Shown here: positions 6,061-7,255 of the stretch, in pieces
How the letters are laid out: the number at the start of each line of letters is the position of its first letter
How positions within the stretch are numbered: the first letter of the stretch is position 1
Source of the DNA: a virus
Taxonomy: Duplodnaviria; Heunggongvirae; Uroviricota; Caudoviricetes
DNA: 10,589 nt
Reading direction: 5' to 3' (one strand)
IMG/VR virus record: IMGVR_UViG_2609459825_000010
Translations under genes and position numbers: made by a program
Notes under the pieces: generated by a model
What the model saw: the letters and a program-made list of their open reading frames with translations, nothing else
What the model was told of the DNA's origin: nothing
The model's database searches: none

Positions 6061-6182
6061 ATGACTGAAATCGCGTCAGTACAGTAAACGCGCTGGTGGC
6101 GGTGAATACCTGTCTTTCAGCTTGCTGGCTTTTTCGACAAGAGTTATTGGTGTGTCACGTTAACCGGAAAAGGGAAAAAGAC

Positions 6183-6380
6183 ATGCTAAAACAGCAGGAT
6201 ATGACAGAAACCGCCAGAGTGGTGTTTAATGAATTAAGCGTCACCGAACCGGCGACCGTCGGGGAGATTGCGCAGAATACTTACCTTTCACGCGAACGCT
6301 GCCAGTTAATACTGACCCAGCTTGTTATGGTGGGTCTGGCAGACTATCAGTGCGGTTGTTACAGACGCCTTCAGTCCTGA
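6183..6380 (+). CDS. Small hypothetical protein (65 aa; possibly DNA-binding)
   Basis: ATG 6183 with AAGGGA upstream; MLKQQDMTETARVVFNELSVTEPATVGEIAQNTYLSRERCQLILTQLVMVGLADYQCGCYRRLQS. Followed by its own terminator. No family recognised; the upstream part of the ORF-track ORF (from 6096) is probably not translated. Confidence 0.4.
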   Translation: MLKQQDMTETARVVFNELSVTEPATVGEIAQNTYLSRERCQLILTQLVMVGLADYQCGCYRRLQS

Positions 6381-6393
6381 AGGCTTTTTATTT
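6367..6393 (+). terminator. Intrinsic terminator overlapping the stop codon of the 6183-6380 ORF
   Basis: GCCTTCAG-(TC)-CTGAAGGC stem followed by TTTTTATTT. Confidence 0.55.
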
Positions 6394-6513
6394 GTGGTGA
6401 ATGGGCGGCTGGTGGGGGGCGACACCTGTCAGTCCTTTGCTTATGTGTTGATGATAATTTACCTTTTGGGGCTATAATTGAGCTAACCAATTGCTAATGA
6501 AAGTAAAATTATA

Positions 6514-7227
6514 ATGGCTGTTGTCTGTTCAGTTATCATGGTTTGCTCCCCAATTAATATTTTTCTTGAAAAGGATACGTTGTCACTTAAGCCAGGCTCA
6601 GTTGTTCTGGCCACCAAATGCATCAGGGAGCTTTTCCTTATGCATTATGGCAAAGTTAAAATTGTCGATATAAGCGAATCCGTCGTAAGTCAATATCTGG
6701 AAAGTCAGCATAAGCTGACGAGGACTCGTCTGACTGACATTCCGCTTTACCTGTTGCTGGAACCCAACAATCCTGCGTTGGCTGCGGCTTTAATTACCAG
6801 CCAGGGATTTTCCGGAGAGGCCACGGATATGTTTCTTATGATGGCCTGCCTGTCTCTGTTTGAAACAGATGAACGGATGTCATTGTTTTTAAGTGGATGT
6901 TTATCCAGCATAAGTGCCAAAGTCAGGGCGATAATTCAGACAGATATATCAGCAAGCTGGACGCTTTGTGCGATTGCTCTACAGTTGCATATGAGTGAGA
7001 GTTTGTTAAAGACAAAACTGAAAAATGAAGGGGGCATGTTCAGTCGCTTGTTGCTGGAAGAGCGGATGCGTGTTGCTGTAAATATGTTATGTTCCCGGCA
7101 TGGATATGGACAGGCTATAGCAGAAAAATGCGGTTATTCAAGCAGGTCCTACTTTATTTCTGTATTTCACCGCTATTATGGCTTCCCGCCAGACAGATAT
7201 GTATCCAGGCAAGGGCTTGATTATTGA
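6514..7227 (+). CDS. AraC/XylS-family transcriptional regulator (start uncertain)
   Basis: C-terminal about 100 aa (...ISASWTLCAIALQLHMSESLLKTKLKNEGGMFSRLLLEERMRVAVNMLCSRHGYGQAIAEKCGYSSRSYFISVFHRYYGFPP...) has the dual-HTH signature of AraC-family proteins. The gene lies in a markedly AT-rich island (about 6420-7250) with promoter-like elements around 6446-6480. Confidence 0.8.
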   Translation: MAVVCSVIMVCSPINIFLEKDTLSLKPGSVVLATKCIRELFLMHYGKVKIVDISESVVSQYLESQHKLTRTRLTDIPLYLLLEPNNPALAAALITSQGFSGEATDMFLMMACLSLFETDERMSLFLSGCLSSISAKVRAIIQTDISASWTLCAIALQLHMSESLLKTKLKNEGGMFSRLLLEERMRVAVNMLCSRHGYGQAIAEKCGYSSRSYFISVFHRYYGFPPDRYVSRQGLDY

Positions 7228-7245
7228 TTTTCATCTGATTATTAT
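7217..7245 (+). promoter_or_regulatory. Possible promoter for the tRNA cluster (-35 TTGATT 7217-7222, 17-nt spacer, -10 TATTAT 7240-7245)
   Basis: Hexamers read directly; predicted start just before the first tRNA (7256). AT-rich context makes chance matches likely. Confidence 0.3.
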
Positions 7246-7255
7246 TTTTTGGCTC

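Follow-up and report, generated by a model that had tools for sequence, protein, structure and literature searches.

A psrB-type AraC-family regulator gene in an exchangeable AT-rich cassette of a lambdoid prophage

Does an AraC-type regulator gene lodged in the late region of a prophage serve the phage, or is it carried as cargo that acts on the bacterial host? This question is raised by the IMG/VR virus record IMGVR_UViG_2609459825_000010 (Caudoviricetes), in which a stretch of 10,589 nucleotides, hereafter the window, was analyzed as a whole; it represents the junction of the early and late regions in a lambdoid prophage. An open reading frame (ORF) of 237 aa, located at 6514–7227 on the plus strand, lies there in an AT-rich segment ahead of a tRNA cluster. 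The first-pass annotation, made from the sequence alone, had taken it for an AraC/XylS-type regulator that might act in lysogenic conversion in the manner of PatE and the Psr proteins. The best explanation of the whole locus is that the segment is lambdoid-prophage cargo carrying an allele of psrB that acts on host acid resistance, and we consider this explanation very probable. Both the observation and its earlier interpretation are supported; the gene in question already has a name and has been characterized.

The window protein is identical in 233 of 237 residues (98.3%) to WP_000301797.1, the 237-aa product of a gene in O-island 57 (OI-57) of Escherichia coli EDL933 (NZ_CP008957, 1905274–1905987), and the DNA is collinear with EDL933 OI-57 over positions 6050–8262 at 93.7% identity. 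A primer pair for Z2104 with an amplicon of 158 bp is listed in an allelic-profiling paper (PMC4763077). Both primers are found as exact matches 158 bp apart in the window (6774–6931) and in the EDL933 OI-57 gene (L008 33534–33691), and neither the second O157 paralogue described below nor the gene of a phage encoding the Shiga toxin (Stx) 2k is matched by them. Since the published primers match exactly and with the stated amplicon size, the OI-57 gene is Z2104, that is, psrB, named for prophage-encoded secretion regulator B. Judged by sequence, the window gene is therefore an allele of psrB and not merely a PatE- or Psr-like gene, which sharpens the earlier suggestion. The surroundings of the gene in OI-57 (prophage CP-933O) are also alike, with the terminator tR' and a 65-aa ORF upstream and the ileZ/arg tRNAs, TerB, DUF3927, sialate O-acetylesterase, and lysis genes downstream. 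However, the antiterminator is a PF03589-type Q protein in the window and a DUF1133 protein in OI-57, and argN is degenerate in OI-57 (L008 34092–34191, where only two tRNAs were detected), whereas all three tRNA genes are intact in the window.

A second O157 paralogue is encoded in prophage Sp4 of Sakai (ECs_1087; L020 23677–24390), and strain Z852 has the identical protein (WP_000261909.1). It matches the window protein at 90.3% identity, shares its 237-aa architecture, and likewise sits between the 65-aa ORF and ileZ-argN-argO, whereas its prophage has a different backbone, with a short Q, a CPBP protease, and pchA nearby. The identity between PsrB of OI-57 and this paralogue is 90.7%, and the published identity between PsrA and PsrB is 90% (PMC10877973); by sequence, the second paralogue is presumably PsrA. 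Reviews place psrA (z1789) in OI-50 (CP-933N), the potC prophage. Nevertheless, no AraC gene was found in the potC prophage of the re-sequenced EDL933 (CP008957) or in Sakai Sp6. In OI-50 and Sp6, Q runs directly into a TerB remnant (L005 16970–17010; L011 14170–14623), and the 1.55-kb block with the small ORF, AraC gene, and tRNAs (6178–7725 in the window) is absent, the junction lying in an AAAAAG microhomology. The mismatch points to a discrepancy of assembly or stock. Two further observations can be noted here: the published EvrS coordinates (PMC11774850) imply about 1.45 kb of extra DNA in CP-933N of the old AE005174 assembly, and the 90%-identical paralogue is instead found in Sakai Sp4 (ECs_1087), adjoining pchA.

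The ORF is uninterrupted, and its length equals that of the closest characterized relative. Both Pfam profiles of the AraC helix-turn-helix (HTH) domain match above their cut-offs: HTH_AraC in two stretches with E = 7.8e-12 and 45.5 bits (cut-off 26.6), and HTH_18 with E = 5.8e-10 and 39.8 bits (cut-off 33.6). Together they cover residues 155–230, and the earlier assignment to the AraC/XylS type is confirmed. A BLASTP search aligned the protein end to end (residues 1 to ~230) with PatE (37% identity), GadW (35%), YdeO (31%), and AppY (29%), while GadX and EnvY align over the C-terminal, DNA-binding half only. Among solved structures, the DNA-binding domain of GadX is the nearest in sequence (3mkl; E = 6.2e-19, residues 134–233), and the best NCBIfam model is that of YdeO, which covers residues 1–229 with 108.6 bits versus an equivalog cut-off of 348. 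Full-length homology, including the N-terminal domain, places the window protein in the GadW/YdeO/AppY/PatE acid-stress subgroup.

Within this subgroup, PatE (Z0321, Sakai ECs_0287) is a prophage-borne full-length homologue (E = 1e-53) that begins with a matching MxxxCSVI, but it is only 37% identical and is encoded at the far right end of prophage CP-933H/Sp1, beyond the tail-fiber genes, and not in the slot between Q and the tRNAs. An orthologous relationship was rejected on these grounds, and PatE is a paralogue. GadW, YdeO, and AppY of E. coli K-12 share the end-to-end alignment and the AraC-type C-terminal domain; all of them feed the circuit of gadE and acid-resistance system 2 (AR2), and AppY is also prophage-borne, on DLP12. 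They differ from the window protein in their low identity, which does not reach the NCBIfam equivalog cut-offs, in their loci, and in their upstream signals.

The family profile aligns ToxT over residues 25–233 and Rns over residues 68–233, which suggests that the protein has the two-domain plan of these regulators, with an N-terminal beta-rich domain followed by a double HTH. A model constructed using AlphaFold from an alignment of 11 sequences contains five N-terminal strands and then helices (mean predicted local distance difference test score, pLDDT, 62.7; predicted template modeling score, pTM, 0.40). Rns, CsvR, and ToxT occupy the top ranks of a Foldseek search, with a TM-score of about 0.27 obtained from this low-confidence model; the matches are consistent with the fold and are not proof of it. 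Identity with these three proteins is about 18–20% in the Foldseek alignments, and there is no evidence for a fatty-acid pocket in the window protein.

The function proposed for the window gene follows from published work on its namesake. Survival at low pH is improved by PsrB, which binds directly to the promoters of hdeA (−132 to −45) and gadE and activates AR2 through GadE (PMC10877973). It shares with PsrA an indirect repression of type III secretion via GadE and YhiF (PMC10877973, PMC8565820). Deletion of psrB alone has little effect on type III secretion in EDL933 (PMC10877973). PatE is a published activator of gadE and hdeAB (PMC10877973), and both PatE and AppY are prophage-borne counterparts within the PsrB acid-resistance circuit (PMC10877973, PMC10057817). 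By analogy, psrB would be read in the lysogen from a promoter of the cassette, and PsrB would bind AT-rich sites that lie upstream of both hdeA and gadE and would switch on the acid-resistance regulon of glutamate decarboxylase (GAD) and AR2. In strains carrying the enterocyte effacement locus (LEE), the raised GadE and YhiF would then repress type III secretion. The GadW/YdeO/AppY/PatE subgroup would in this way connect regulators gained by horizontal transfer to the core acid-stress island.

The composition and the borders of the segment indicate how the gene is carried. The earlier claim that positions 6420–7250 are more AT-rich than their flanks was borne out by a windowed calculation: the GC content is 41.8% against 51.9% in the rest of the window (one-sided binomial p = 2.6e-9). 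This is the lowest value among all 831-bp windows, and the minimum begins exactly at 6420; every non-overlapping 831-bp window has at least 46.2% GC. The coding sequence of the AraC gene has 43.7% GC (45% at third codon positions), and the neighboring coding sequences have 50–55%. Comparison by blastn with the phage Stx2a_1447 showed that only 6039–6416 (terminator and small ORF) and 7252–7554 (tRNAs) are common to both. In Stx2a_1447, a DNA methylase cassette of 1,208 bp with 53% GC replaces 835 bp of the window and is followed by the tRNAs and stx2AB. Since the homology breaks at 6416/6417 and resumes at 7251/7252, the swap unit can be placed at approximately 6417–7251 (835 bp, about 42% GC). 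The left junction could reach about 6427, ten bases further to the right, in two alleles, and the right junction lies 4 nt before ileZ. The first-pass annotation had drawn the unit from 6100 to 7250, directly downstream of the terminator tR' and ahead of the tRNAs. The tRNA cluster does follow, but the unit itself begins about 360 nt past tR', after the small ORF.

As a side observation, the left junction (6400–6445 in the window; L009 3355–3400) falls within a hairpin. The corresponding stretch of the methylase-carrying phage Stx2a_1447 forms a perfect inverted repeat (GGCTGGTG...CACCAGCC); in the window, other sequence stands in place of the 3' arm, and folding does not exceed chance (z = −0.98).

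A promoter-like site of the cassette was found at 6451–6478 on the plus strand (ATGATA, a 16-nt spacer, and TATAAT), with 10 of 12 consensus positions. Its −10 element is kept in psrB, in the second O157 paralogue, and in the Stx2k phage, and it reads TATAAT and TATACT in relatives with 62% and 58% identity, respectively. No convincing terminator was detected between the AraC stop codon and ileZ (7195–7256, z = +0.48 versus shuffled sequences). The term 'moron' used in the first-pass annotation fits in the distinct GC content and in the presence or absence with sharp borders. With a promoter-like site but no terminator of its own, the cassette matches classical moron anatomy only partly. In sequence terms, the cassette is nevertheless compositionally foreign, sharply bounded, moron-type cargo of a lambdoid prophage.

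Several points weigh against the reading of this cassette as a psrB allele acting on host acid resistance. The function of the window allele is deduced by analogy with published PsrB work, and that via secondary sources. The allele differs from EDL933 PsrB at four positions (A103V, C152G, H196Y, and I202V), and the latter two fall within or beside the second HTH. The AlphaFold model is of low quality, which leaves the N-terminal fold backed by the profile alignment. Promoter-like sites are not enriched in the AT-rich region (three found versus 2.7 expected from shuffled sequences); of the 'promoter-like elements' reported earlier, a well-scoring site with a conserved −10 element stands, but such sites are no commoner there than by chance. 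No complete E. coli genome searched contains more than 70% of the window. A further point concerns the translation start: a GGGAG Shine–Dalgarno sequence lies 9 nt 5' of an in-frame internal ATG at 6640 (6619–6642), while only a weak purine stretch precedes the ATG at 6514, and a 195-aa product is called in many database entries.

If the real product were this 195-aa protein, it would lack the first N-terminal beta-strands and might behave unlike full-length PsrB. The ribosome-binding signal just described favors such a product, as does its annotation for Sakai ECs_1087 and in hundreds of database entries. On the other side, residues 1–42 are conserved in relatives down to 29–37% identity, and M1, C5, S6, V7, K20, L25, G28, L32, and F41 are invariant in the alignment of relatives. 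The N-terminus MxxVCSVI is common to the window protein and PatE, and its VCSV is also found in GadW, YdeO, and AppY; since this motif is shared by PatE, GadW, YdeO, and AppY, the start at 6514 is supported. PGAP also calls the 237-aa form. We therefore regard the shorter product as unlikely, and the GGGAG before the ATG at 6640 probably explains the 195-aa annotations, in which the conserved first 42 residues are missing.

The full-length gene could still be a passenger. AT-rich DNA is typically silenced by H-NS, and the island might be a relic of transfer, silent, H-NS-repressed, or decaying, with no current function in the host. Apart from its composition, the small effect of psrB deletion on type III secretion in EDL933 is in line with this, as are the frameshifts of the adjoining small ORF and the degenerate argN in some prophages. 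The selection on the gene is also only moderately purifying: the ratio of nonsynonymous to synonymous substitution rates (dN/dS) versus the paralogues is 0.22–0.43, reaching 0.43–0.57 in the N-terminal half. However, dN/dS is below 1 in every comparison, and the range of 0.22–0.43 therefore indicates that the gene is maintained by purifying selection. Of 5,426 complete E. coli genomes, 726 (13%) carry the cassette, at 1,325 places, with a median of two and up to four per genome, and in these 726 the ORF is intact over its full length. In 590 genomes, a copy at least 99% identical is present; these include strains labeled O157:H7, O111, and O121, as well as isolates from chickens and human stool. 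The exact window protein is already public on hundreds of contigs. Preservation of the −10 element across diverged relatives and the published acid resistance and direct promoter binding of PsrB also speak against a passenger, and this explanation is highly improbable.

Among 50,697 phage records, the cassette was found in one only, the inducible phage phiSTEC1575-Stx2k, which has a 91%-identical psr-type gene directly upstream of ileZ-argN-argO and stx2kAB (L010 4482–6805). This arrangement brings up a different possibility, namely that the AraC protein is a regulator of the phage cycle that controls the tRNA genes, the downstream TerB, esterase, or stx cargo, or the lysis–lysogeny decision, and is not directed at the host. 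Its position inside the late operon, where no terminator separates it from the tRNAs that follow immediately, would suit such a role, and the conserved small ORF alongside encodes a putative winged-helix protein. Yet the gene is dispensable, since functional Stx2a phages have a methylase instead and OI-50 and Sp6 have nothing in its place. Moreover, the only full-length relatives of known function (PatE, GadW, YdeO, and AppY) control chromosomal acid-stress genes, and the published phenotypes of psrB and psrA concern host genes. We find a phage-cycle role very unlikely, and a host-directed psrB allele remains the preferred explanation.

The small ORF next to the cassette (6183–6380, plus strand, 65 aa from its ATG) belongs to phrog_331 (E = 7.2e-37). 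It has a weak winged-helix TrmB-like Pfam match (E = 0.0044, below the cut-off) and is named 'TrmB family transcriptional regulator' by PGAP. A terminator-like hairpin with a U-run (6367–6384 and a T-run to 6390, plus strand) covers its stop codon; with −10.5 kcal/mol and z = −2.9, it folds better than shuffled controls. The reading frame is kept in six loci, in methylase-carrying Stx2a phages and AraC-carrying phages alike, and is frameshifted in some prophages. Because the ORF is common to phages without the AraC gene, it is conserved backbone lying outside the AraC cargo. The first-pass annotation was right about the ORF and its terminator, but its inclusion of the ORF in the inserted unit did not hold.

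Upstream of the small ORF, the arrangement is that of a lambdoid late-operon start. A DUF968 protein (3702–4751) and RusA (4761–5138) are followed by the gene of a 273-aa Q antiterminator (5135–5956, plus strand; Pfam PF03589 Antiterm, E = 4.6e-51), whose homologue in L001 is named 'antitermination protein' by PGAP; the Q gene marks the start of the late operon. A putative late promoter pR' can be proposed from the sequence at 5962–5989 on the plus strand (TTGATT, a 16-nt spacer, and TGgTAAATT with an extended −10). It has 8 of 12 consensus positions and hence fell below the listing of the consensus scan, and we infer the assignment from its location between Q and a terminator, which matches lambdoid architecture. 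This tR'-like intrinsic terminator (6039–6054 and T6 to 6060, plus strand) lies 83 nt downstream of the Q stop codon and consists of CCCGCC-GCCU-GGCGGG plus U6; its hairpin, with −12.6 kcal/mol and z = −2.56, folds better than shuffled controls. Homology to phages with other types of antiterminator begins at this hairpin (6036–6050), namely at 6039 in Stx2a_1447 (L009), 6036 in phiSTEC1575-Stx2k (L010), and 6050 in EDL933 OI-57 (L008). The terminator is therefore also a mosaic boundary; this matches the edge of a Q/qut module and would back the tR' reading.

Downstream of the cassette, the tRNA cluster ileZ (CAT), argN (TCG), and argO (TCT) extends over 7256–7505 on the plus strand; it was detected by ARAGORN and by Rfam tRNA matches, and PGAP names the three genes tRNA-Ile, tRNA-Arg, and tRNA-Arg. 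The first of them (7256–7331) is called Met (CAT) by ARAGORN versus ileZ (tRNA-Ile) in PGAP and phage annotations. The first strong intrinsic terminator 3' of the AraC gene is located past argO (hairpin 7520–7537, feature to 7543, plus strand; −14.0 kcal/mol, z = −4.0, with 0 of 200 shuffled sequences folding as well). Since the cassette lies 3' of pR' and tR' and no terminator precedes the tRNAs, it is probably co-transcribed with ileZ-argN-argO, and strong over-expression on induction can be expected. The proposed course is that the cassette would be part of the Q-dependent late transcript, which would run together with the tRNAs to the 7520–7537 terminator, and that prophage induction would bring Q-dependent read-through into psrB.

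Past this terminator, a TerB-family gene begins at 7604 and is followed by DUF3927 and a nanS-p-type sialate O-acetylesterase gene (8734–10566). The spacer that separates DUF3927 from the esterase gene contains an Rfam match to the small RNA STnc100 (8343–8552, plus strand; 145.6 bits, gathering score 47). This is the spot where the small RNA EvrS/Esr023 of enterohemorrhagic E. coli (EHEC) has been described, between z1789 and the esterase z1793; the likeness is one of position. The left part of the window is a different mosaic, since no complete genome searched has the whole window contiguous (70% at best). A hok/sok-type toxin–antitoxin module was found at 2929–3254, in which an Rfam sok RNA (2929–3104, 112.4 bits) overlaps a 70-aa mok/hok-like ORF (3042–3254). 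At the left end of the window, adjoining the replication genes, a 145-aa ORF on the minus strand (310–747) resembles the N-terminal portion of a transposase of the IS3 family (orfA-like, '...FSNEFKLHMVELASKPNANVAQLAREHGVDNNLIFKWLRLWQREG...').

The interval from Q to the esterase gene is also occupied by more distant relatives. Those with 62% (L018 2512–4723) and 58% (L016 989–4726) identity follow an N6/N4 DNA methylase there; the L016 relative is placed after the tRNAs, and no tRNAs were found in L018. Because these relatives follow a methylase, methylase and AraC cargo can stack as well as swap. As far as the compared sequences indicate, this region acts as a hot-spot for cargo.

PsrB and its paralogue are already named and experimentally studied regulators of EHEC O157:H7, and in this sense the finding is already known. 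In RefSeq, however, the gene is labeled only 'helix-turn-helix domain-containing protein', and in Sakai it is a truncated 195-aa 'AraC-family regulator'; it can safely be relabeled as psrB-type. What is gained is a base-accurate picture of the cassette (about 6417–7251), its alternation with a methylase in a slot immediately before the tRNAs and, in the Stx phages, before stx, and its prevalence, with carriage by 13% of complete E. coli genomes, usually in two copies and well beyond O157.

A more far-reaching idea, which we put forward as a rather doubtful one, is that the stretch from the small-ORF hairpin to ileZ is a site set aside in lambdoid late operons for the exchange of cargo and that the output of PsrB is coupled to prophage induction. 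This coupling is suggested because the cassette has no terminator, lies in a Q-antiterminated transcript, and is upstream of stx2k in one inducible phage. To our knowledge, a link between the state of the phage cycle and the stress and virulence programming of the host via PsrB has not been described so far. If the idea is true, psrB-type regulators and N6/N4 DNA methylases would be swapped at this point, as between the window and the Stx2a phages, or stacked, as in the 58–62% relatives, and the induced sub-population would raise its GAD acid resistance and shut off type III secretion along with the expression of the toxin.

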